From the IMG/VR virus record IMGVR_UViG_2627854066_000004, positions 1 to 36,127 of that record: a stretch of 36,127 bases of DNA. The stretch is one strand, 5' to 3'. Below, piece after piece: positions 4,188 through 36,127 of this stretch; the stretch's first letter is position 1; the number at the start of each line of letters is the position of its first letter. Origin of the DNA: a virus (taxonomy: Duplodnaviria > Heunggongvirae > Uroviricota > Caudoviricetes). Position numbers and translations under genes: made by a program. The notes below the pieces were generated by a model, which was given only the letters and a program-made list of their open reading frames with translations, did not search any database and was not told where the DNA came from.

Positions 4188-4307
4188 GTAATCATCATGC
4201 ACACACAAAAAAACCGCTTGCCATGCCGCAATCAGTCAGGTTACATTTCTGCTGCACCTCATAAAACGGGTGCCGGGATTCTCAACCTGCTGACAAACGA
4301 AGCGCAC

Positions 4308-4328
4308 AACCGCGCCAGCGGTTTTTTT
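4308..4328 (+). terminator. rho-independent terminator
   Basis: AACCGC-GCCA-GCGGTT stem-loop followed by TTTTTTT. Confidence 0.55.
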
Positions 4329-4340
4329 GTGCGTACTGTA

Positions 4341-4448
4341 TTGCCACGTCTTTTTCGCACACGAATTATGGTGGGGCGTACGGGGCCGACTTCGGTCGGG
4401 CCGGTTTCTTCGTTTGCCGGTGTTGAGAACCCCGTACGTCTCGCCACC
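4341..4448 (+). promoter_or_regulatory. promoter-like element plus structured leader or small RNA upstream of the 4511 ORF
   Basis: TTGCCA-N17-AATTAT at 4341-4369, then a long hairpin at 4371-4447: CGTACGGGG (4377-4385) pairs with CCCCGTACG (4430-4438) and encloses a UUCG-capped stem CCGAC-TTCG-GTCGG (4386-4399). Confidence 0.3.
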
Positions 4449-4510
4449 CCGAGATTCTCAACTCTGGTTGGTGAGTATCCAAAAACTCACAAACGAAGAG
4501 GCCAAACACC

Positions 4511-4741
4511 ATGGCAAACCGCAAACAGCACCGCGCTATCGCGGAGCGTCGTCACATCCAGACTGAAATCAACCGCAGACTTTCCCGCGCATTCCGCGTC
4601 GCTAAAATCATGCACATCAATATGCTGCATGAGCGTAGCTGCGAACTTTCAAACCTCTATTCATCCGCTGTTTTCAGCTATCTGGCGGATGATCTGCGCG
4701 AGCTTCAGCAGCTCATCCAGCAGCAAAACAAACTCCATTAA
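4511..4741 (+). CDS. hypothetical basic protein
   Basis: 76 aa, AAGAGG RBS 9 nt upstream. Confidence 0.45.
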   Translation: MANRKQHRAIAERRHIQTEINRRLSRAFRVAKIMHINMLHERSCELSNLYSSAVFSYLADDLRELQQLIQQQNKLH

Positions 4742-4813
4742 TTCCTGTTCCGGGCCTTTCCTGCACCTTGCGGCGGGAGGCCTTCGCACATCTGTAGTAA
4801 AGAGAATTGCAGC

Positions 4814-5203
4814 ATGATTGACGCTCATGACTTCACAGGATGGGTGCGCACACAGGACACCCGTCTGGCTCCCGTTCTTCAGGGATTATTTGATCTTTAC
4901 ATCCGTGGTCGTGACAACAGAGCACGCACCACAAAACCGGAGAACGCGGACACCCTTTATTTCACAGTAGACGACTGCTACCGCGTGGACTTCACACCAC
5001 ACGGGCTGGCGTTGCACTGCCTGACACCACACGGCGAATCACTGCTGGCGTATTACGACTCCCCGGCCTCCGCATTTGCGGCAATGCTGGCGCATCGCAC
5101 TGCTGGCGGGTGTGCCTCGCTGAGTGAATACACCGCTGAATTTAACCGCCTTTCCGCCATCTTTTCGCAGGAGTGGCAGCGCGTGACGGGATACCAGCCA
5201 TGA
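4814..5203 (+). CDS. hypothetical protein, coupled to A
   Basis: 129 aa; its stop overlaps the gene A start (ATGA at 5200-5203). Confidence 0.55.
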   Translation: MIDAHDFTGWVRTQDTRLAPVLQGLFDLYIRGRDNRARTTKPENADTLYFTVDDCYRVDFTPHGLALHCLTPHGESLLAYYDSPASAFAAMLAHRTAGGCASLSEYTAEFNRLSAIFSQEWQRVTGYQP

Positions 5204-8052
5204 GTGAGTTTGCATGGAGCTGGAATGAGCCACGGCCAGCCATTGATCCGGCCAGATTTACGGAGCACAGGCAGGAAACTGAAACCGACCTGCAACGCGC
5301 CATCCGTTACTACCTTGAGGCAGACAAAAAGGCTCTGGAAGAACAGGAAGCGAAGGAGGAAGCCTTTTTCGCACAATCCACCGTGGGTAAAAAACTCATG
5401 GCATCCCTTGAGGAAGCCGGACAGCGTGAAAAGCTGGCACAAAGCATCATCAGCAAGCGTCAGGCAACAGAACAAGACCCGGTGGCCCGTGCTTTTGCCA
5501 CACTGAAGGTGCTTCCCGTTTATCTGCGTGAACCTCTGAGCCGCCACCTCTCTTTCCTGCGCAAAAAACAGGAAGCCGATCGTCAGAAAGGCAAAAAGAG
5601 CTGGCAGGCGGAACGCTACGCGCGCGGAACCCTGCGCAAAATATTCGAACGTCTGGACCGCACCGACAGCCGCTGGCTGACACCGGGTTATCGCTCCATT
5701 GCCGGACGCGAACGCCTGGACGATTTGCTTTACCTGCCGCAGCTCAACAAACACCAGATACAGACGCTGGCCACCATGACGGCGGCGATGTTCAGCAGCA
5801 CCTTCGAAAAGCTCTGCGATGGCTTTGGTGCGACTGATGGCGAGCTGACCATGGATGTAACGCTGAAGGCGTATCAGATGCTGGCCCGCATGGCGTTACA
5901 CCTGCACGCCATGCCTCCGCATTATGACGCACTGACAACAGACAAAGACCGGAGGAACGAACCGGACACGGAGCTGCTGCCGGGCGCAATCCTTCGCCTG
6001 ACCTGTGCAGAATGGTGGAAACGCAAACTGTGGCTGTTACGTTGCGAGTGGAGAGAAGAACAACTCCGCGCCGCCTGTCTGGTTTCCAGAAAAACATCGC
6101 CCTATCTGAGCCAGGACGCGTTAAGCGAGTTTCGCGCACAGCGCGAGAAAACACGCGATTTCCTGAAAAGTTTCATGCTGGAAAATGAAGACGGGTTCAC
6201 GATTGATCTCGAGACGGTGTATTACGCGGGAGTAAGTAACCCGGTTCACCGTAAGGCAGAAATGATGGCCACCATGAAGGGGCTGGAACTTCTGGCCGAA
6301 GCCCGTGGCGACAAAGCGGTGTTTCTGACTGTCACCTGCCCGTCAAAATACCACGCCACAACAGAGAACGGTCATCCGAATCCCAAATGGAACGGGGCCA
6401 CCATGCGCGACTCCAGCGATTATCTGGTTAACACGTTTTTTGCGGCGGTCCGCAAAAAACTGAACCGCGACGGCCTGCGCTGGTATGGCATCCGCACGGT
6501 GGAGCCTCACCATGACGGCACCGTGCACTGGCATATGATGGTCTTTGCTCATCCGGAAGAAATCGACAGCATCGTGGCCATCACCCGCGATATTGCCATT
6601 CAGGAAGACCGCCACGAGCTGGGCAATGATATTACTCCGCGCTTTAAGGTGGAGTATGTCGACGGCTCCAAAGGCACGCCAACCAGCTACATCGCCACCT
6701 ACATCGGAAAAAATCTGGACAGCCGCGCCGTGGATGGAATCGACCCGAAAACGGGCAAACCACGCGTTGACCACGAAACCGGAAAATCAATGGCCGAGAG
6801 CGTGGAGCGCGCCATCGGCTGGGCGCGCCTTCACCGCGTCCGCCAGTTCCAGTTCTTTGGCATCCCCTCCCGTCAGGTGTGGCGTGAACTGCGCCGCCTC
6901 GCCAGCCAGATGGCACGCAACCCGGAAGGCCCGCAACGGCTGAAGGATGACGCAATGGATGCGGTTCTTGCTGCCGCTGATGCCGGGTGTTTTGCCTCCT
7001 ACATTGAAAAACAGGGTGGCGTACTTGTTCCACGCAAGGACTACCTGATTCGCACCGCCTACGACCTCGCAGATGAGCTGAACGATTACGGCGAGCAGGG
7101 CGTACAGATTTACGGGATCTGGTCACCACTCATCGGGGAATCCTCCCGTGTGTGCACGCATCCGGATAACTGGAAGCTGGTAAGACGCAAACCGGAAGCG
7201 GAAGACAGCGCCCGCGAAAATGGTTTTGACCTTCAGGGCGGCCCTGCCGCCCCTTGGACTCGTGGCAATAACTGTCCCCGTGTACAGGAAACGGACAACA
7301 ACGGGACAGAACAGCCGGAAGAACGGCCAGCACCGTGGCCGCAGATCCCTGACGGTGTTGAAGTGAACGAATGGCTGCACTCACTGAAACGGCACGAACG
7401 CCGGGCGCTGATGCGTTCGCTGCGTGACAAACAGGCAAAAAACAACAGTGATGAAATGCAGAGCTGGACACAGAGCCGCAAACAGCAGCGGCCTTTGCCT
7501 GATAACCACGAATTACTCGCTAAAGAATGGCGGGAGTCTGCTGAATCCCTTGGCCTGCATATCGGTGAACAACAGATGCAGCACCTGTTACGGGGCGGCA
7601 GTCTGTACGTTGACGGCAGCATCATTGCACCGCAGGGATTTGAAATTGTACGCAAACCGGATACCCGCCCGGACAGCCGAATCACGCAGCTCTGGCAGCG
7701 CCTGAGCCGTAATCACGATGTAAGCAGCACGGAGATCCGCCATAACCCGGTCGCCAGCTATCTGGCACAGCTGGGGGCATCAGACCCTGAAGCCGCCGCA
7801 CGCCTGGCATCCACACTTCAGCAGGACCAGAACACCATGAAAACACCCGTTACCGTGCTTTCTGACATGCTGCGCGCCATCCGCGACGCAGAGCACGCAC
7901 AGAGAATCAGTGAAACCACTGAACGCGCCCGCCGCAAAGCAGACCTGCTGCGGGGTGGCCTGACCAGTGGAAACAAAAAACAGACAGAAACGGGATTCAC
8001 AAATCCCATAAATGAGCAAAAAAACGCGCCGCGATATATGAAGCGCGCATAA
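5200..8052 (+). CDS. A: rolling-circle replication initiator, P2 gpA family
   Basis: Contains an HUH-type motif GTVHWHMMVF and paired tyrosines YIATYIGK as in the P2 A family. Start set at ATG 5200; the six-frame ORF begins at 5173. Confidence 0.85.
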   Translation: MSEFAWSWNEPRPAIDPARFTEHRQETETDLQRAIRYYLEADKKALEEQEAKEEAFFAQSTVGKKLMASLEEAGQREKLAQSIISKRQATEQDPVARAFATLKVLPVYLREPLSRHLSFLRKKQEADRQKGKKSWQAERYARGTLRKIFERLDRTDSRWLTPGYRSIAGRERLDDLLYLPQLNKHQIQTLATMTAAMFSSTFEKLCDGFGATDGELTMDVTLKAYQMLARMALHLHAMPPHYDALTTDKDRRNEPDTELLPGAILRLTCAEWWKRKLWLLRCEWREEQLRAACLVSRKTSPYLSQDALSEFRAQREKTRDFLKSFMLENEDGFTIDLETVYYAGVSNPVHRKAEMMATMKGLELLAEARGDKAVFLTVTCPSKYHATTENGHPNPKWNGATMRDSSDYLVNTFFAAVRKKLNRDGLRWYGIRTVEPHHDGTVHWHMMVFAHPEEIDSIVAITRDIAIQEDRHELGNDITPRFKVEYVDGSKGTPTSYIATYIGKNLDSRAVDGIDPKTGKPRVDHETGKSMAESVERAIGWARLHRVRQFQFFGIPSRQVWRELRRLASQMARNPEGPQRLKDDAMDAVLAAADAGCFASYIEKQGGVLVPRKDYLIRTAYDLADELNDYGEQGVQIYGIWSPLIGESSRVCTHPDNWKLVRRKPEAEDSARENGFDLQGGPAAPWTRGNNCPRVQETDNNGTEQPEERPAPWPQIPDGVEVNEWLHSLKRHERRALMRSLRDKQAKNNSDEMQSWTQSRKQQRPLPDNHELLAKEWRESAESLGLHIGEQQMQHLLRGGSLYVDGSIIAPQGFEIVRKPDTRPDSRITQLWQRLSRNHDVSSTEIRHNPVASYLAQLGASDPEAAARLASTLQQDQNTMKTPVTVLSDMLRAIRDAEHAQRISETTERARRKADLLRGGLTSGNKKQTETGFTNPINEQKNAPRYMKRA

Positions 8053-8117: not shown

Positions 8118-9077
8118 ATGAAAATTTGTATCGACGACGGCTCCACCAACATCAAGCTGGCATGGACTGAGAACGGCGAACGCCGCAACGCCATCAGCCC
8201 GAACAGCTTCAAGTCGGAATGGTCTGCGCCGTTCGGTGGCTCGCAGCCTGCGAACTACATGCTTGATGGCGTGCGCTATGGTTTTGATCCGGTCAGCGAT
8301 CGCTTTGTCCAGACGACCGACACGCAATACCAGTACAGCGATGTGAATGTCATTGCCATTCATCACGCGCTGGTCAAATCAGGCATCACGCCACAGGAGG
8401 TGGATGTGGTTGTCACCCTGCCACTGAGCGAGTATTTCGACACAAACGCACAGCCGGACATGGCCAACATCAACCGCAAAAAAGCGAACGTTATGCGCCC
8501 GGTGGAGTACCAGAACGGCGAAGCATTCACTATCCGTAACGTGCGGGTTATGCCTGAATCCATTCCGGCTGGCTTTAAGGCACTGGCTGACATGAGTCCG
8601 TTTGAATCCCTGCTGATTGTAGATTTGGGCGGAACCACGCTGGATGTGGCAAAGGTTCAGGGGCAACTGGCAGGTATCAGCCAGGTGTTTTGCGATCCAC
8701 ACGTAGGCGTTTCTCTGATGGCCGATGCCGTACTGTCGGTGATGGCCACTAACGGTATGCGCACCAGTCACCACATCGCCAATACCATTATCGAACATCG
8801 CCATAATGAAGCCTGGCTGCGCCAGCACATCCACAATGACGCGCATTACGCCAGCCTGATGGAGGTTATTCGTGAAAAGGAAGAAACACTGAAACAACGC
8901 GTGATCCGCGCGCTGGCGGGTTTTTCGGGTTACGGGCGGGTGATGGTTGTCGGTGGAGGGGCGGAGATTGTGGCACCCGCTATCCGCGAAGCCTGCGGAG
9001 TTAATGCGACTTTCATCGCGGACGGGGTGCCACAGTTTGCTCTGGTTAATGGGCTGTACGCAATGGACAAGGAGTAA
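8118..9077 (+). CDS. actin-like segregation ATPase, StbA/ParM family
   Basis: 319 aa; N-terminus MKICIDDGSTNIKLAW and the LIVDLGGTTLDVA phosphate-binding motif match the StbA/ParM family of plasmid R100/R1. Confidence 0.8.
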   Translation: MKICIDDGSTNIKLAWTENGERRNAISPNSFKSEWSAPFGGSQPANYMLDGVRYGFDPVSDRFVQTTDTQYQYSDVNVIAIHHALVKSGITPQEVDVVVTLPLSEYFDTNAQPDMANINRKKANVMRPVEYQNGEAFTIRNVRVMPESIPAGFKALADMSPFESLLIVDLGGTTLDVAKVQGQLAGISQVFCDPHVGVSLMADAVLSVMATNGMRTSHHIANTIIEHRHNEAWLRQHIHNDAHYASLMEVIREKEETLKQRVIRALAGFSGYGRVMVVGGGAEIVAPAIREACGVNATFIADGVPQFALVNGLYAMDKE

Positions 9078-9081
9078 ACCA

Positions 9082-9393
9082 ATGACGACACCAACCAGAC
9101 GGATAAGTTTCTATCTGAAGCCCGCCGCCGTCAAGAACGAAGGCGAAGCATGCGCCTGGCTGGACAGCCTTACACCAGAAGCCCGCAAAAGCGGCCAACG
9201 CGTGGCTTTTCTGGCCGGGCTGGCACTTCTGAAAATGAATCCGGCAGAGGCTTACCGACTGGCTGCATGGGCTGACGATGAGGCGTTATCGGTGACACAA
9301 ACCAGGACAGAACGCCCCGCGTCACAGCCAGTATCAACCGCACAGATAACCAGTCAGATGGCCAGAAATATCCGGGCGTTATTTCCCGAATAA
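9082..9393 (+). CDS. StbB/ParR-like small DNA-binding partner (putative ribbon-helix-helix)
   Basis: 104 aa directly downstream of the StbA-like gene, AAGGAG RBS overlapping its 3' end; N-terminal beta-strand-like RRISFYLKP and C-terminal NIRALFPE resemble StbB as I recall it. Confidence 0.5.
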   Translation: MTTPTRRISFYLKPAAVKNEGEACAWLDSLTPEARKSGQRVAFLAGLALLKMNPAEAYRLAAWADDEALSVTQTRTERPASQPVSTAQITSQMARNIRALFPE

Positions 9394-9399
9394 CACAAC

Positions 9400-9421
9400 A
9401 TCAGGGCGCATCCGCCCTGAT
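9400..9421 (+). terminator. stem-loop after the stbAB-like unit
   Basis: ATCAGGGCG-CATC-CGCCCTGAT, a 9-bp perfect stem; the downstream T-tract is weak (GACTTT). Confidence 0.4.
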
Positions 9422-9456
9422 GACTTTAATCCGGGAACATAAACAAGGGGGACACA

Positions 9457-9792
9457 ATGCAACACATTGACAGAGAAAAAGAGCAGCGACTGATTGAGCG
9501 AATGGAAGCGCTGGCGAAAGAAGAAAATGTCAACATCCAAAAAATAGCTGAATGTGGCCAGATAGTTCTTCGTCGTGAAAAAGACATCAAGCAACTGATG
9601 TCTGGCGAAATCAGCAAAACATGGACTTCAGGCAAGAAGACGATTTATTGCAGCTTCTGCAATAAATCCCAGCACGAAGTCATAAAGGTGATTGCCGGAC
9701 CGTCTGTTTACATCTGCAATGAGTGCGTGGATTTGTGCAATGAAATTATCAGAGGAGAAGTGACAGACCATGAAGAAAAAACGCATGAATGA
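9457..9792 (+). CDS. small protein with C-terminal ClpX-type zinc-binding domain
   Basis: 111 aa; the C-terminal segment [38 protein letters not shown] is almost identical in pattern to the N-terminal C4 zinc-binding domain of ClpX (recalled as [38 protein letters not shown]). The N-terminal 60 aa are unrelated. Confidence 0.7.
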
Positions 9793-22088: not shown

Positions 22089-22689
22089 TTCACTGTTACC
22101 ACCATCAGCCAGCAATTTCATGCGTTGTGCCGAAGCCGTCGGAACACGCATTACAGACATTCCGGTAGACCTCAACACGCTGTGGTCGCCGGACACCTGC
22201 CCGGTGCATCTGCTGCCTTATCTCGCCTGGGCGTTTTCCGTTGACCGCTGGGATCGCAACTGGCCGGAAGAGACAAAGCGACAGGTAATTCGTGATGCAT
22301 GGCTGATACACCGACACAAAGGGACCATCAGCGCACTGCGAAGAGCCGTGGAGCCTCTCGGCTACCTGATTGAAGTAAAGGAGTGGTGGCAACTCAACGA
22401 GGAGCCAGGAACATTTCGCATTGTTGTCGGAGTACTTGATCAGGGCATCACCGATGAAATGTATCAGGAACTTGAGCGCCTTATTGCGGATGCAAAACCA
22501 GTAAGTCGCCATCTGACGGGGCTGGCGATCAGCCTGAGTGTGAACGGAAAGATTTTCGTTGGTACGGGATGCTATCACGGCGATGCCCTGACGGTTTATC
22601 CCTACACCCCGGAGTCCATTATTGTCGAAGGGGATTATTTCCCTGCCCCGGCCATTCATTTAATTGATAATCTGAGAGTAAACGCATGA
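22081..22689 (+). CDS. I: baseplate protein, P2 gpI family
   Basis: 202 aa from ATG 22081, overlapping the J stop. Confidence 0.8.
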   Translation: MSNSLLPPSASNFMRCAEAVGTRITDIPVDLNTLWSPDTCPVHLLPYLAWAFSVDRWDRNWPEETKRQVIRDAWLIHRHKGTISALRRAVEPLGYLIEVKEWWQLNEEPGTFRIVVGVLDQGITDEMYQELERLIADAKPVSRHLTGLAISLSVNGKIFVGTGCYHGDALTVYPYTPESIIVEGDYFPAPAIHLIDNLRVNA

Positions 22690-24299
22690 CAGTGAAATAC
22701 TACGCCATTCTGACTAATCAGGGCGCAGCACGACTGGCTAACGCGACGATGCTCGGCAGTAAGCTGAATCTGACGCAAATGGCCGTTGGTGATGCAAATG
22801 GTGTGTTACCAACACCAGACCCTGCACAAACAAAACTGATTAACCAGAAACGCATTGCACCGCTGAATCTTCTGAGTGTTGACCCTAACAATCAGAGCCA
22901 GATTATTGCGGAGCAAATCATCCCTGAAAACGAGGGAGGATTCTGGATCCGTGAGATTGGTCTTTATGATGATGAAGGTGTACTCATTGCGGTGGCAAAC
23001 TGCCCGGAAACGTACAAACCGCAGTTGCAGGAAGGCAGTGGACGCACCCAGACTATCCGCATGATTCTGGTTGTCACGAACACCGAAGCCATCACGCTGA
23101 AAATCGACCCGTCTGTGGTTCTGGCAACCCGCAAATATGTGGATGATAAAATCTCAGAGCACGAACAGTCACGACGTCACCCAGACGCCTCGCTGACCGT
23201 AAAAGGTTTTACTCAGTTAAGCAGTGCAATTAACAGTGAATCAGAAACACTGGCCGCAACACCGAAAGCGGTTAAGGCTGCATATGACCTGGCTAACGAG
23301 AAATATACCGCCCAGAACGCCACCACTACACAAAAAGGGATTGTTCAGCTCAGTAGCGCCACGAACAGCACGTCTGAAACACTGGCAGCGACACCAAAAG
23401 CTGTTAAGGCGGTAATGGATGAAACGAACAAGAAAGCACCATTAAACAGCCCGGCACTGACCGGAACGCCAACAACACCAACAGCGGCACAGGGGACTAA
23501 TAGTACCCAGATCGCAAGCACGGCTTTCGTTATGGCCGCGATTGCCGCACTTGTAGACTCGTCACCTGATGCACTGAACACGCTGAACGAACTGGCTGCG
23601 GCGCTGGGCAATGACCCGAATTTTGCGACCACCATGACTAACGCGCTTGCGGGTAAGCAACCGAAGGATGCCACCCTGACGGCGCTGGCGGAGCTTGCTA
23701 CATCAGCAGATAAACTCCCATATTTTACAGGGGCAGATCGTGCCGCGTTAACCGCGTTGACAAGTGTTGGACGTGCCATTCTTGGCAAAACCAGCACTCA
23801 GGGAGTTCTTGATTACCTTGGTTTAGGAGAAGGCTCTGCACTGCCCGTTGGTGTGCCCGTTCCGTGGCCCTTAGCAACACCACCAACGGGCTGGCTGAAA
23901 TGTAACGGTGCAGCATTTTCTTCTGAAATGTACCCCAATCTGGCAAAAGCCTACCCCACCAATAAATTACCGGATTTACGGGGCGAATTTATTCGTGGCT
24001 GGGATGATGGGCGAGGAATTGATGCAGCACGCGCTTTATTGAGCATTCAAACCGGGATGTTGGAAAAACACCGCCATATTGTTGTAGCTAACGATGGATA
24101 TGACACAAAGGATGAATGGGAGTTGGCCACGATTTTCAAAAAAACATATACACAAGGCAGGGGGCTTGATGCCACAAATACAGGAGGGAGTTTGATTCCA
24201 TCACCAACGCTTCATTCACGAGGAAGTATTGGTAACACAGGTGGTAGTGAAACCCGCCCCCGCAATATTGCATTTAACTATATCGTGAGGGCGGCTTAG
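22686..24299 (+). CDS. H: tail fibre protein, P2 gpH / Mu S family, with a constant N-terminal part and an exchangeable C-terminal segment
   Basis: 537 aa; the C-terminal part from ...LGLGEGSALPVGVPVPWP... onward is shared at its start with three inverted downstream cassettes; conserved C-terminus RPRNIAFNYIVRAA. Confidence 0.85.
   Translation: MTVKYYAILTNQGAARLANATMLGSKLNLTQMAVGDANGVLPTPDPAQTKLINQKRIAPLNLLSVDPNNQSQIIAEQIIPENEGGFWIREIGLYDDEGVLIAVANCPETYKPQLQEGSGRTQTIRMILVVTNTEAITLKIDPSVVLATRKYVDDKISEHEQSRRHPDASLTVKGFTQLSSAINSESETLAATPKAVKAAYDLANEKYTAQNATTTQKGIVQLSSATNSTSETLAATPKAVKAVMDETNKKAPLNSPALTGTPTTPTAAQGTNSTQIASTAFVMAAIAALVDSSPDALNTLNELAAALGNDPNFATTMTNALAGKQPKDATLTALAELATSADKLPYFTGADRAALTALTSVGRAILGKTSTQGVLDYLGLGEGSALPVGVPVPWPLATPPTGWLKCNGAAFSSEMYPNLAKAYPTNKLPDLRGEFIRGWDDGRGIDAARALLSIQTGMLEKHRHIVVANDGYDTKDEWELATIFKKTYTQGRGLDATNTGGSLIPSPTLHSRGSIGNTGGSETRPRNIAFNYIVRAA
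23806..23831 (+). repeat. recombination site for the DNA invertase (gix/hix-like) inside H
   Basis: TTCTTGATTACC-TT-GGTTTAGGAGAA, 26 bp with a central TT dinucleotide and half-sites resembling Hin/Gin sites; the inner arm and about 200 bp downstream are repeated in inverted orientation at 25367-25392, 25884-25909 and 26362-26387. Confidence 0.6.
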
Positions 24300-24305
24300 T
24301 TATAT

Positions 24306-24917
24306 TCAACTGGCTGCTGCCAGTGGTATTTCCGGCAAGTTGATATCTGGTGCCATGTTTATATCCATTGCGTTCAGCGCGTCTATATAATCCAGCACGG
24401 CGTTAAGCCGGGTGGTTTCTGCCTGCGTCAACTTCCGCCCGGCCTGCAACTTCAACTGAATCAGACTTATGGAAGCCATTGCCGCATCAGCCAGTGACTG
24501 GCGCTTGGTTTCTGCCGCTTCTACTGCGGCACTATGTTGTGCCTCAGTATCTGTCACCCATTTTTCACCATCCCATTTATCGTATGGTGTTGACGGGGAG
24601 ATAGTGGTTGTATTTTTCGGGTAGTCACCTAGCGTCGTGATTTCTTCGGTGTTTCCCGTGTCAGTGTTATAGACGGTTTCACCACGATGATCTGGCGTAT
24701 ACTCCCATGAATTTAAATTCTCCGAACGGCGGATAGCATAGCCCGCTTTATGTGCGCCCGGGGCATCTAAACAGGAATTTGCCGGAATACCGACACCCGC
24801 AGCAAGATATTCAGTTGATTCGGAAATATATTCCCGTGTCTCACCATCATAGTTATAAACGACGATGTTTCCTGCCTGTACGGCAATAAGGTCATCATTT
24901 AATATCGCGTTATTCAT
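24306..24917 (-). CDS. tail fibre assembly protein (P2 gpG / Mu U family)
   Basis: 203 aa on the minus strand, translationally coupled to cassette 1 and convergent with the current H C-terminus. Confidence 0.8.
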   Translation of the reverse strand: MNNAILNDDLIAVQAGNIVVYNYDGETREYISESTEYLAAGVGIPANSCLDAPGAHKAGYAIRRSENLNSWEYTPDHRGETVYNTDTGNTEEITTLGDYPKNTTTISPSTPYDKWDGEKWVTDTEAQHSAAVEAAETKRQSLADAAMASISLIQLKLQAGRKLTQAETTRLNAVLDYIDALNAMDINMAPDINLPEIPLAAAS

Positions 24918-25392
24918 TATGCGGTTCTCACAATATAATTGAAGGCAATATTGCGTGGGCGGGTTTCATTCCCCTCTGAGGATTCCGTTCTGTATTGACT
25001 GGTAAATCTACCGTTAATTGCACCTTGCCGGACGGCGTTATCTGTCGACAACAGACTATCCCCGCCTTTGTCATTTGGCACCAGTACCGTGTTATCCCAC
25101 GCATCCCATGACCGAATATTATGATAATGACTTCCTGTTAACCACCCCTGCATGCTTAAGATGACCCTTCCGGCATCCACCCCGCGCCCATCATCCCAGC
25201 CACGGATAAATTCACCGCGTAAGTCTGGTAATTTATTGGTGGGGTAAGCCATTGCCAGTCTGGGATACATTTCAGAAGAAAATGCTGCGCCGTTACATTT
25301 CAGCCACCCCGTTGGCGGCGTGGCTGAGGGCCATGGAACAGGTACACCAACGGGCAGTGCAGAGCCTTCCCCCAAACCAACGTTTTCATGCT
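24917..25392 (-). other. promoterless alternative tail-fibre C-terminal cassette 1 with its crossover site
   Basis: Minus-strand reading frame starting in the crossover sequence (GEGSALPVGVPVPWPSATPPTGWLKCNGAAFSSEMYP...) and ending ...NIAFNYIVRTA; no start codon or RBS of its own. Confidence 0.7.
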
Positions 25393-25909
25393 GCTCTTAC
25401 GATGTAATTAAACGCAATGTTGCGTGGGCGGTTTTCGTTTGCAGTTGGAACAATTCTTGAAGCATCAAGGCCAATCACTTTTGGGTAAACAGTGCCATCT
25501 GTTCTTTCAGTCACCATACTTCTGATTAAGGAGAAATAACTATTGTTCGTTGAGGGACTCAAAGGCACCACTGCCCCCTTAAATGAGCCTACTGATTCCC
25601 ATATTGAATAATTTTCGGTGTTTACAGTCTTGAACTCACCATAGATATTACGTATGGCATCACCTTGAGCGGATAATATTGTTCTCCCCGCATCCACACC
25701 ACGTCCGTCATCCCAACCACGGATAAATTCACCGCGTAAATCCGGTAATTTATTGGTGGGATAAGCCTTTGCCAGTTTTGGGTACTTTTCAGAAGAAAAT
25801 GCTGCTCCGTTGCATTTCAGCCATCCCGTTGGCGGTGTTTCTAAGGGCCACGGAACGGGTACACCAACGGGCAGTGCAGAGCCTTCCCCCAAACCAACGT
25901 TTTCATGCT
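25386..25909 (-). other. promoterless alternative tail-fibre C-terminal cassette 2 with its crossover site
   Basis: Same conserved 5' block and 3' end (...NIAFNYIVRAA) with a different middle; its stop codon lies inside the crossover site of cassette 1. Confidence 0.7.
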
Positions 25910-26387
25910 GCCCTTACGATGTAATTAAACGCAATGTTATGGGGGCGTGTTTCAGATGCTGTGCGAACTGAGCGAGAGGCGTCGAATGTCCATACAGAAG
26001 CACCATATCCTTCAATGATCTCAGTTGGTTGTAAGCCTACTGATAATATAGAGTCAGTTTGACTAAATGGTCCTGAATTAAGCGCATCTTTAAAAAGCTG
26101 AGTACGCCCAAAAGTGCCAACTATATTCTGAATAGCGTCAGACTGTGCAGACAGTAGGTTGCGCCCATTATCAACGCCCCGTCCGTCATCCCAGCCGCGA
26201 ATAAATTCGCCCCGTAAATCCGGTAATTTATTGGTGGGGTAGGCCTTTGCCAGATTGGGGTACATTTCAGAAGAAAATGCTGCGCCGTTACATTTCAGCC
26301 ACCCCGTTGGCAGCGTGGCTGAGGGCCATGGAACGGGCACACCAACGGGCAGCGCAGAGCCTTCCCCCAAACCAACGTTTTCGTCTT
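25903..26387 (-). other. promoterless alternative tail-fibre C-terminal cassette 3 with its crossover site
   Basis: Same conserved ends with a third variable middle; its crossover site 26362-26387 is next to the invertase gene. Confidence 0.7.
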
Positions 26388-26441
26388 TATCCCTACCTAT
26401 ACCAACTATGTATTTTTCACGAAACAAAAAGGATGTTTTTT

Positions 26442-27041
26442 ATGCAAATTGGCTATATTCGTGTGTCAACAAATGACCAGAACACGGATTTACAACGCAA
26501 TGCACTGAACTGCGCAGGATGTGAACTGATTTTTGAAGATAAAATCAGCGGAACGAAATCAGCCAGACCGGGATTGAAAAAACTGCTCAGAACGCTATCA
26601 GAAGGAGATACGCTGGTTGTCTGGAAGCTGGACAGACTGGGCAGAAGTATGAAACACCTGATCACGTTTATTGAGGAATTGCGGAAAAAAGGTGTTAATT
26701 TCCGTAGTCTGACGGACAGCATTGACACATCAACACCCATGGGGCGTTTCTTTTTTCACGTCATGGGGGCTTTAGCCGAAATGGAACGTGAATTAATTGT
26801 AGAGCGTACACTGGCCGGGCTGGCAGCAGCACGCGCACAAGGACGCATTGGCGGACGTCGCCCGAAGTTGACAAAAGAACAACACGAGCAAATAGCGAGG
26901 CTGATTAAAAACGGTCATGACAGGAAACAACTGGCGATCATTTACGACATCGGCATATCGACGATTTATCGTTATCACCCTGTAGGCGATATACAGGCTG
27001 AAGAAACAACCAGGCAGACTCAGGAAAATGAAAACCGCTAA
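26442..27041 (+). CDS. site-specific DNA invertase, serine recombinase of the Hin/Gin/Cin/Pin family
   Basis: 199 aa; N-terminus MQIGYIRVSTNDQNTDLQ with the catalytic Ser, and a C-terminal HTH (GISTIYRY); AAGGA RBS. Confidence 0.9.
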   Translation: MQIGYIRVSTNDQNTDLQRNALNCAGCELIFEDKISGTKSARPGLKKLLRTLSEGDTLVVWKLDRLGRSMKHLITFIEELRKKGVNFRSLTDSIDTSTPMGRFFFHVMGALAEMERELIVERTLAGLAAARAQGRIGGRRPKLTKEQHEQIARLIKNGHDRKQLAIIYDIGISTIYRYHPVGDIQAEETTRQTQENENR

Positions 27042-35178: not shown

Positions 35179-35376
35179 ATGACGCAAAATGTACGATGCA
35201 AAAATTGCAACAAACTACTTGCCCGCGCCTCATTTCACTACATTGAAATAAAATGTCCGCGCTGCAAAACACTTAACCAGATAACGAGAGCCATCGAGCA
35301 CCCCACACACATGAGGAGTTATGACCGTGGGGATCGCAATCCAGCACCAACCAGCACATACACCGGAACACACTAA
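35179..35376 (+). CDS. com: Com-like zinc-finger protein (phage Mu Com family translational regulator)
   Basis: 65 aa; RCKNCNKLL...IEIKCPRCK matches the Mu Com zinc finger nearly residue for residue as recalled; AGAGG RBS; the 3' end overlaps the downstream methyltransferase start. Confidence 0.7.
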   Translation: MTQNVRCKNCNKLLARASFHYIEIKCPRCKTLNQITRAIEHPTHMRSYDRGDRNPAPTSTYTGTH

Positions 35377-36127
35377 GGTTTATCAGACTGACAATGCCAC
35401 GCTCTGTCGTGGGAATGCGCTGGAAATATTGCCGCTGATTGAGCCAGAAAGCATTGATGCCTTAATCACTGACCCGCCTTACAGTTCGGGTGCGACACAC
35501 AAGGCCGGACGCACCAACCAAGGCAGCCATGCAAAATATCTGAACGGCGAGAACCTTCACCGCTTTGATGGGTTCGCGGGTGAAAACATGGACGCCCGTT
35601 CGTGGGCTTACTGGACACAATTATGGATGGCACAGGCACACCGCGCAGTCAGGCCGGGCGGTTATGCCCTGGTATTTACTGACTGGCGACAACTACCAGC
35701 TTTAACCGATGCGTTTCAGGCCAGCGGCTTTACATGGCGCGGCATCATTGCGTGGAACAAGGGGAGGGGGTCACGAACACCCCATACGGGGTATTTCAGG
35801 CATCAGTGCGAATACATCGTCTGGGGCAGCAAAGGCCATTTAGATAAATCGCCTTCGGGGCCGTTCGACGGCTGCATGACGTACCCGGTTATCCCGTCAA
35901 AGAAAATGCACCCGACCGGAAAACCAGAAGAACTAATGGCGGAACTGGTCAGGACTGTGAATAGTGGCGGAACAGTCCTTGATCCTTTTATGGGGTCAGG
36001 GACAACGGGTGTGGCTGCACTGAAAGCAGGGCGAAAATTTATTGGTATAGAAACCAGTGATCATTATTTTGAGGTAGCAGCGCAGCGGCTTCGGGGGACT
36101 ATTACCACAACCATTTCGGCTACATAA
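35321..36127 (+). CDS. DNA methyltransferase, beta-class amino-MTase (N6-adenine or N4-cytosine)
   Basis: 268 aa; catalytic motif ITDPPYS near the N-terminus and the AdoMet-binding motif DPFMGSGTTGVAA near the C-terminus (motif IV before motif I). Stop codon is the last three bases of the window. Confidence 0.85.
   Translation: MTVGIAIQHQPAHTPEHTKVYQTDNATLCRGNALEILPLIEPESIDALITDPPYSSGATHKAGRTNQGSHAKYLNGENLHRFDGFAGENMDARSWAYWTQLWMAQAHRAVRPGGYALVFTDWRQLPALTDAFQASGFTWRGIIAWNKGRGSRTPHTGYFRHQCEYIVWGSKGHLDKSPSGPFDGCMTYPVIPSKKMHPTGKPEELMAELVRTVNSGGTVLDPFMGSGTTGVAALKAGRKFIGIETSDHYFEVAAQRLRGTITTTISAT

Follow-up and report, generated by a model that had tools for sequence, protein, structure and literature searches.

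The c4 RNA of phages P1 and P7 acts on the ant mRNA by blocking its ribosome-binding region (PMC12197685). The IsrK and C4 RNAs are the seqA and CI RNA of phage P4, and this "IsrK-C4 immunity system" is also present in P1, P7, and N15 (Barquist et al., PMC3632133). The P4 eta gene holds the constitutive promoter, seqA, and CI, and according to PMC10111431 (citing Forti 1999), eta is translated only from an upstream promoter and its translation prevents termination. In the Gifsy-1 prophage, IsrK base-pairs with STnc1160, a processed RNA, and controls the downstream antirepressor (Hershko-Shalev et al., 2016; PMC4825925), and motifs named "c4 antisense RNA" and "c4-a1b1" have been catalogued in gamma-proteobacterial prophages (Weinberg et al., 2010; PMC2864571). 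Here we describe a 36,127-nt stretch of viral DNA (IMG/VR record IMGVR_UViG_2627854066_000004; referred to below as the window), and in particular an interval at 4190-4520 that lies between the gene for a 183-aa protein and the genes leading to the replication initiator A. We estimate a probability of about 80% that this interval is a P4/P1-type antisense-RNA immunity cassette in the early operon of a P88-like prophage. The features of the cassette and the genes directly downstream of it all lie on the plus strand.

We scanned the whole window with Rfam at gathering thresholds. The results show two matches only, and both lie inside the interval. The upstream match is isrK (RF01394), an IsrK or P4 seqA-type leader RNA at 4254-4328, which scores 62.0 bits (cut-off of 50) over the full model (1-77 of 77). 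The downstream match is the C4 or P4 CI-type antisense RNA (RF01695) at 4364-4451, which scores 79.2 bits (cut-off of 45) over model positions 1-87 of 87. A first-pass annotation, made from the sequence letters, had described a terminator, a promoter-like site, a long hairpin with a UUCG-capped inner stem, and short repeats in this interval, and had proposed a small RNA or a riboregulatory leader acting on A and the other downstream genes. All of these elements are present at their positions, and the proposal is supported by the Rfam matches, by structural covariation, and by covariation between the RNA loops and their targets. It had overlooked that a second structured RNA (4254-4328) ends in the terminator, that a second promoter-like site is located at 4218-4247, and that the complement of the second repeat, CTTCGTTTG at 4408, is contained within the hairpin. 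The cassette shows every sequence and structure feature of the C4 and IsrK families that is checkable by the methods used, and for the leader's own promoter it has a candidate.

The hairpin at 4371-4447 consists of a long stem around a UUCG-capped hairpin and a second hairpin, and its minimum free energy (MFE) structure is the Rfam consensus structure. Its MFE of -48.5 kcal/mol is far lower than that of shuffled sequences (z = -4.84), and none of 200 shuffles is as stable. In the Rfam match, the stem extends over approximately 4370-4448 and the UUCG tetraloop is located at 4391-4394. The C4 stem also changes in a compensating fashion across related loci, as 16 of the 28 pairs of the fold show double-sided compensatory changes among 66 distinct sequences. 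The pattern used to search IMG/VR fixed the GGGG run and the hairpin-2 stem of C4, so the invariance of these elements carries no weight. RNase P releases C4-type RNAs from a longer transcript as a mature RNA of about 77 nt. The ends of the RNA here are marked by a conserved U/GG at the 5' junction and by a 3' tail, CCACC(C), that resembles the ACCA of tRNAs.

In the leader RNA, two hairpins and a linker are followed by a Rho-independent terminator at 4308-4328 (AACCGCGCCAGCGG followed by a U-run), which forms the 3' hairpin of the isrK model and is the counterpart of both P4 t1 and the terminator of IsrK. A promoter scan identified a candidate internal promoter, TTGCCA-N18-TACATT, at 4218-4247, whose predicted transcription start, at approximately 4254, coincides with the first nucleotide of the isrK match. 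Neither the hexamers of this site nor their 18-nt spacing vary among 21 distinct P88-like sequences, two of which (L020 and L043) have a diverged spacer sequence. The site is a better promoter candidate than the promoter-like site at 4341-4369, and it would correspond to the P4 promoter PLE.

The short repeats of the first-pass annotation are antisense target sites. The sequence GATTCTCAAC occurs only at 4277 and 4453 (0.07 occurrences expected per window), and GTTGAGAAC at 4422 is its complement. The sequence CAAACGAAG occurs at 4294 and 4490 and as its reverse complement at 4408 (0.43 expected per window), where CTTCGTTTG lies in the loop of the second inner hairpin. The C4 complements are exact and are limited to this locus within the window. 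Six sites can thus be assigned. Two segments belong to C4: the specificity loop a' at 4405-4416 (UUUCUUCGUUUG), which is the loop of hairpin 2 and includes the anti-Shine-Dalgarno motif UUCU, and the specificity segment b' at 4421-4430 (UGUUGAGAAC), which lies in the internal loop that separates hairpin 2 from the closing stem. Upstream of C4, b1 at 4277-4286 (GATTCTCAAC) lies in the loop of IsrK hairpin 2 and is complementary to b', and a1 at 4293-4302 (ACAAACGAAG), just 5' of the terminator, is complementary to a'. Downstream, b2 at 4453-4462 (GATTCTCAAC) lies immediately 3' of C4 and is complementary to b', and a2 at 4489-4503 (ACAAACGAAGAGGCC) is complementary to a' and overlaps the Shine-Dalgarno sequence AAGAGG (4496-4501) of the gene that starts at 4511, 9 nt before its ATG. 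The 3' end of a2 is GGA or AGA in almost every locus and corresponds there to the Shine-Dalgarno sequence of the first downstream open reading frame (ORF). The a':a2 duplex extends to 14 bp (-21.9 kcal/mol). When duplex energies were compared with those of 500 mononucleotide-shuffled loops, b':b1 (6/500) and a':a2 (2/500) stood out and a':a1 and b':b2 were not distinguished; because this is a weak test, we relied on covariation instead.

We retrieved 120 C4-containing loci from IMG/VR with a degenerate pattern, of which 105 are unique. Among these, there are 33 distinct a' loops and 25 distinct b' segments. At each locus, the RNA gene is flanked on both sides by exact complements of a' (8-10 nt) and by complements of b' (7-8 nt). 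The loops match their own flanks over 7-9 nt, as compared with about 5 nt for loci with other loops, and the positions of the sites are fixed. In an alignment of 28 P88-like loci (alignment A1; mean identity of 90%), the scaffold is almost invariant, and most of the variation falls in the six sites, which change in concert. For the upstream interaction (b1:b' and a1:a'), 95.8% of the cells are paired and 11 of 17 pairs show double-sided changes, giving a covariation score of 0.585 versus 0.115 when shuffled and at most 0.143 when slid. For the downstream interaction (a':a2 and b':b2), 94.4% of the cells are paired and 10 of 18 pairs show double-sided changes, giving a covariation score of 0.543 versus 0.125 when shuffled and at most 0.177 when slid. 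The a1:a' pairing is fully maintained in alignment A1 (100% of the cells), with double-sided changes in seven of its nine pairs.

The P88-like lineage contains at least nine types of a' and at least five types of b' in 12 combinations, and single loops are shared, or nearly so, between the P88-like and P4-like groups. An exact-pattern scan of IMG/VR for the loop pair of the window found eight loci, all with the P88-type scaffold, and gave no evidence of P4-like satellites with this loop pair, that is, of identical specificity in a helper and a satellite. One locus (L010, 5186-5455) carries a hybrid cassette, in which b1 (ATTCTCACC) mismatches its own b', which needs TTTCCAC, and b2 matches; this cassette may be a recombinant of two specificity types.

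The first downstream gene, at 4511-4741, encodes a 76-aa protein that matches the Pfam family Derepression (PF25738; 29.5 bits, cut-off of 27) and PHROG 3688 (E = 3.5e-45) and is 29% identical to P4 epsilon (E = 1e-8). This epsilon-like gene would be the first gene gated by C4. It is followed by a gene for a 129-aa protein at 4814-5203 (PHROG 3237) and by the P2-type replication initiator gene A at 5200-8052 (Pfam PF05840, Phage_GPA, E = 7e-131; "replication endonuclease" in RefSeq), the presumed final target of the regulation. A long eta-like ORF of 206 codons, at 4197-4817, spans the whole RNA cassette and contains the epsilon-like gene out of frame. The long ORF and the 129-aa gene are joined by an ATGA overlap (ATG at 4814, TGA at 4815-4817), as are the 129-aa gene and A (5200-5203), and the 76-aa gene ends 72 nt before the next start and stands apart from this chain. 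The arrangement suggests two separate translation routes into the replication gene. A scan of the plus strand at 4451-5200 found no intrinsic terminator, the scan being blind to Rho-dependent sites.

By analogy, the likely function of the cassette is an RNA immunity of the P4/P1 type that gates the epsilon-like gene and A. In the lysogen, the early promoter would be shut by the C repressor, and the internal promoter at 4218-4247 would make the 75-nt leader and some read-through transcript, from which RNase P and 3' trimming would excise C4. C4 would then pair with b2 and a2 and block translation of the epsilon-like gene. The blocked translation would expose the transcript to premature termination of the Rho type, or polarity, so that the epsilon-like gene, the 129-aa gene, and A would stay off. 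The immunity region of P4 comprises, in order, PLE, seqA, t1, the cI/CI RNA gene (seqB), seqC, kil/eta, and epsilon, with alpha further on, and its immunity-dependent terminators, t4 and the Rho-dependent timm, lie downstream of seqC. Pairing of C4 with b1 and a1, beside the terminator, would limit its own synthesis, and autoregulation of a C4-type RNA through an upstream site beside a terminator was reportedly described by Briani and colleagues in 2000. During lytic growth, transcripts would start at the upstream early promoter, and ribosomes entering at 4197 would translate through the leader, the terminator, C4, and the targets, making these transcripts insensitive to the RNA. From there, the ATGA overlaps would let translation continue into the 129-aa gene and then A. 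If it works like P4 epsilon, which is reported to bind the P2 C repressor (Liu and colleagues, 1998), the epsilon-like protein would serve as an antirepressor, and the variable triplets of loop and targets would set the specificity of immunity.

The conservation of the interval could also be ascribed to a protein. The ATG of the long ORF lies 10 nt after the stop codon of the variable 183-aa gene and upstream of the -35 hexamer of the 4218-4247 site, and it marks the 5' boundary of the conserved module. Its frame is open in 37 of 38 P88-like and 48 of 52 P4-like loci, compared with 0-9 of 38 for the other frames, and the ATGA coupling to the 129-aa gene at 4814-4817 is found in 28 of 33 P88-like loci. 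Codon shuffles of the nested 76-aa gene keep the long frame open only 2.8% of the time, and all 26 distinct variants, down to 71% identity, are open. In addition, the translation matches the Pfam family Phage_ASH (PF10554) and PHROG regulator families. These observations would fit an Eta/Ash-type "transcriptional regulator" protein encoded at 4197-4817, with the RNA structures being incidental. However, the entropies at the three codon positions of the C4 segment in this frame are 0.72, 0.79, and 0.80, without any third-position excess, and the second codon position of the long ORF is the most variable one in the overlap with the epsilon-like gene. The 64 distinct C4 DNA sequences yield 60 distinct peptides, and the variation is compensatory at the RNA level. 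For orf45, the nucleotide sequence is noted to be conserved and the amino acid sequence is not (PMC12197685). We consider such a protein highly improbable as the source of the conservation, and we rejected a protein-only account of the ORF on the absent codon periodicity together with the compensatory changes in the RNA. The statement of the first-pass annotation that this ORF is probably not coding holds in that the amino acid sequence is without purifying selection and no synonymous-biased substitution was found, and it does not hold for the frame itself, which is kept open and coupled downstream. The sequences indicate that the long ORF is kept as an open frame, translationally coupled downstream as in P4 eta, with no selection seen on its amino acids. 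The legacy P4 "cI" coding sequence likewise matches Phage_ASH and PHROG regulator families. For translations of the isrK-C4 DNA, at 4197-4500 of the window and at 8168-8584 of P4 (L003), the matches are to Phage_ASH and PHROGs 6928, 995, 821, and 29966 ("transcriptional repressor/regulator"), and these protein families overlay RNA genes.

The remaining alternatives accept the RNA structures or the position of the interval and differ in what these are for. The first-pass annotation had pointed to TTGCCA-N17-AATTAT at 4341-4369, and C4 could be an independent small RNA transcribed from this site with a start near 4376. The site matches 9 of 12 positions and lies in the context AAUUAUG/G directly 5' of the C4 stem. 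Both of its hexamers are largely kept in P88-like loci (-35 hexamer TTGCCA in 27 of 39 and TCGCCA in 10 of 39) while the spacer varies, and the strong terminator at 4308-4328 would otherwise restrict the supply of C4. The promoter scan over 3 kb, however, found two sites where 1.9 are expected in shuffled sequence, so the match alone proves nothing, and the function of this site is doubtful. A primary transcript from about 4376 would lose GGUGGGG, the outer 5' arm of the C4 stem, whose pairs (alignment A2, columns 6-11 with 79-84) show G-C, G-U, and A-U changes, including within the P88-like group. P4-like loci lack a -35 element there, although an xxTAAT/ATTAT hexamer resembling a -10 element is common, and in Gifsy-1, deletion of the upstream isrK promoter abolishes the C4-like RNA (PMC4825925). 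The covariation of the outer arm, the P4-like loci without a -35 element, and the dependence on the isrK promoter in Gifsy-1 lead us to regard C4 as processed from longer transcripts, and an independent transcript as quite unlikely. A different logic has been proposed for Gifsy-1, in which the short IsrK-like RNA is the main regulator. The read-through transcript would fold with b1 and a1 paired in cis to b' and a' and be translationally silent; under stress, an excess of the short RNA would compete for, or titrate, the C4 segment, which would turn on the epsilon-like antirepressor and induce the prophage. This logic is compatible with the identity of the cassette and differs only in the physiological effector RNA. 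In the MFE structure of 4254-4520, the C4 loops pair in cis with the IsrK sites, similar to "structure A" of Gifsy-1, where supplying IsrK in trans increased translation of the downstream antirepressor more than 100-fold and induction depended on IsrK (PMC4825925). According to transposon-directed insertion-site sequencing, P4-like prophages of S. Typhi require their IsrK-like element (PMC3632133). In P4 and P1, however, the C4 or CI RNA is genetically the repressor, and covariation at the downstream pair b2/a2 on the Shine-Dalgarno sequence is as tight as at the upstream pair, an outcome that a pure IsrK-activator model would not require. Activation by the short RNA is possible at this locus but rather unlikely. 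We see next to no chance of a replication origin or a packaging (cos/pac) site, which the first-pass annotation had also mentioned. The interval does lie upstream of gene A, but it contains no iterons, AT-rich tracts, or cos-like features, all of its repeats are accounted for as antisense targets, and the module recurs upstream of unrelated cargo (primase, KilA-N, Rha, and ORF6N genes). The origin or packaging site was dropped for lack of any supporting feature and with the repeats explained.

Several points weigh against an immunity cassette with C4 as its repressor. The promoter, the RNA ends, the processing by RNase P, the Rho dependence, and the repression of the epsilon-like gene and A are all inferred for this phage. 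The second promoter-like element at 4341-4369 is conserved in the P88-like group, and it could drive C4 or the downstream genes independently. The 76-aa protein resembles epsilon only weakly (29% identity; 29.5 bits at a cut-off of 27), and no equivalent of P4 t4 or timm was identified downstream of a2. The related sequences share ancestry, and the pattern used to find homologues fixes part of C4, so the invariance of those columns is built in. In addition, the work on Gifsy-1 reads the same architecture as an activating switch, in which short IsrK turns translation on (PMC4825925).

Sequence comparison identifies the window as a P88-like P2-family prophage of E. coli (genus Xuanwuvirus). The interval is 87-89% identical to that of E. 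coli phage P88 and Citrobacter phage Shae_phiSM and 100% identical to prophages within E. coli chromosomes; in strain EC556, the one chromosome looked at, the prophage adjoins pheL. The gene order is int, C, cox, small accessory genes, the 183-aa helix-turn-helix (HTH) protein, the cassette, the 76-aa gene, the 129-aa gene, A (PF05840), and ParM. A scan of the window for tRNA and tmRNA genes found none. The interval is found in 1184 of 5426 complete E. coli genomes. Because there are up to four copies per genome and the identities are mostly 80-95%, many strains must hold several cassettes of differing specificity. In the one RefSeq record inspected (NZ_AP027440), no RNA or other feature is annotated across the interval. 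Other records carry protein labels on it ("hypothetical protein," "ash family," "transcriptional regulator," "antirepressor," and "Rha protein"), and over the RNA cassette, these labels are spurious or misleading.

Other parts of the window show further features of this prophage. Directly 3' of A, at 8118-9792, are genes for ParM (8118-9077), a small partition-type protein, and a ClpX-type zinc finger protein (9457-9792); ParM and partition-type genes in an integrated P2-like prophage hint at a possible plasmid-like phase or segregation function. A multi-cassette invertible tail-fibre region is located at 22686-27041. It contains a tail-fibre gene on the plus strand (22686-24299). Behind this gene, the minus strand carries a tail-fibre assembly gene (24306-24917) and three Collar-domain cassettes in tandem (24917-26427), and each cassette has an inverted repeat of 209-240 nt (84-91% identity) in common with 23810-24049. 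A serine invertase (Resolvase and HTH_7 domains) is encoded within 26247-27041, and the region looks like a host-range switch of the Gin/Cin/Min type that offers a choice of several fibre tips. An ORF at 35321-36127, the right-hand end of the window, has an N6/N4 DNA methylase domain (PF01555) and occupies the position of the variable cargo in P2-like phages.

What these results provide is mainly an annotation point, namely that a conserved, functional-looking regulatory module is blank in the RefSeq record examined; the cassette is worth annotating and would not surprise a specialist. P88-like phages of the P2 family probably have a second, RNA-based layer of immunity that gates an antirepressor homologue and the replication initiator, and this lineage is present in about a fifth of complete E. 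coli genomes. The specificity determinants of the cassette are hypervariable and modular, which bears on prophage stability, superinfection exclusion, and the interplay of helpers and satellites. As a tentative proposal that may well prove wrong, the helper-type P88-like lineage would have taken up the immunity/derepression cassette of its satellite P4 and rewired it, with a nested epsilon-type gene, a gate on its own A, and a combinatorial RNA heteroimmunity on top of C/Cox. If so, cross-talk or defence between P4-like satellites and helper phages might also run through this RNA heteroimmunity layer.

We compared the cassette with the described systems. The catalogue of Weinberg et al. (2010; PMC2864571) differs from the present analysis in that it is a catalogue only and analyses neither P2-like phages nor the regulated genes. 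In other loci, this RNA module precedes kil and alpha in P4-like loci and genes for KilA-N (L005), ORF6N (L015), Rha (L120), and Derepression (L047) proteins, and blastn finds matches to the isrK-C4 interval of the window in Stx and other lambdoid phages. In two further IMG/VR loci (L030, at approximately 5994-6250, and L062), the first ORF behind the C4 target encodes an 85-aa Tad2-like (Thoeris anti-defence 2) protein (PF11195, E = 2.4e-7), and there the RNA-immunity gate seems to control an anti-defence gene. The isrK - orf45/STnc1160 - anrP region of Gifsy-1 resembles the locus in that IsrK has a promoter and a terminator of its own, read-through transcript is processed into a C4-like RNA of about 80 nt, an ORF starts from an AUG at the 5' end of C4, and an antirepressor lies downstream, and the pairing of IsrK with the C4 region has been experimentally shown there (PMC4825925). 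It differs in belonging to a lambdoid prophage whose cargo is AnrP leading to AntQ, in having no replication gene downstream, and in its published model of activation by short IsrK.

The immI region of P1 and P7 (c4 - icd - ant), with P1 compared by description only, shares the RNA family RF01695, the two specificity segments, and the arrangement of one target pair upstream and one over the ribosome-binding region of the first downstream ORF. An antirepressor-type function is gated in P1 and P7, as it would be here, and in those phages loop differences give heteroimmunity. These features of immI are described in PMC12197685 and reportedly by Citron and Schuster in 1990. The cargo is icd and ant in P1 and P7, whereas it is the epsilon-like gene and A here. 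When P4 was scanned with Rfam, isrK (60.8 bits) fell on the seqA leader and C4 on the CI RNA, followed by epsilon, orf151, orf106, and alpha. The two loci share the same two Rfam matches, in one order and at spacings of one class. In both, a long ORF begins upstream of the internal promoter that it contains (a candidate promoter here), a terminator separates the seqA-type sites from the RNA gene, target sites flank the RNA on both sides, and epsilon or its homologue and then a replication gene follow downstream. They differ in that the host is a complete P2-like phage of the helper type here, whereas P4 is a satellite, and in that the replication gene is the rolling-circle initiator A (PF05840) rather than the primase-helicase alpha. 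The first gated gene is epsilon-like and out of frame in the long ORF, in contrast to kil of P4, which is the in-frame C-terminal part of eta; no in-frame start of the long ORF was found after a2 that would give a kil-like arrangement. The leader is also shorter, with sites at -103/-88 versus -133/-117 or -178/-162. Taken as a whole, the cassette is an ordinary member of a described family, and its mechanism class has been known since the work on P1/P7 and P4 in the 1990s.

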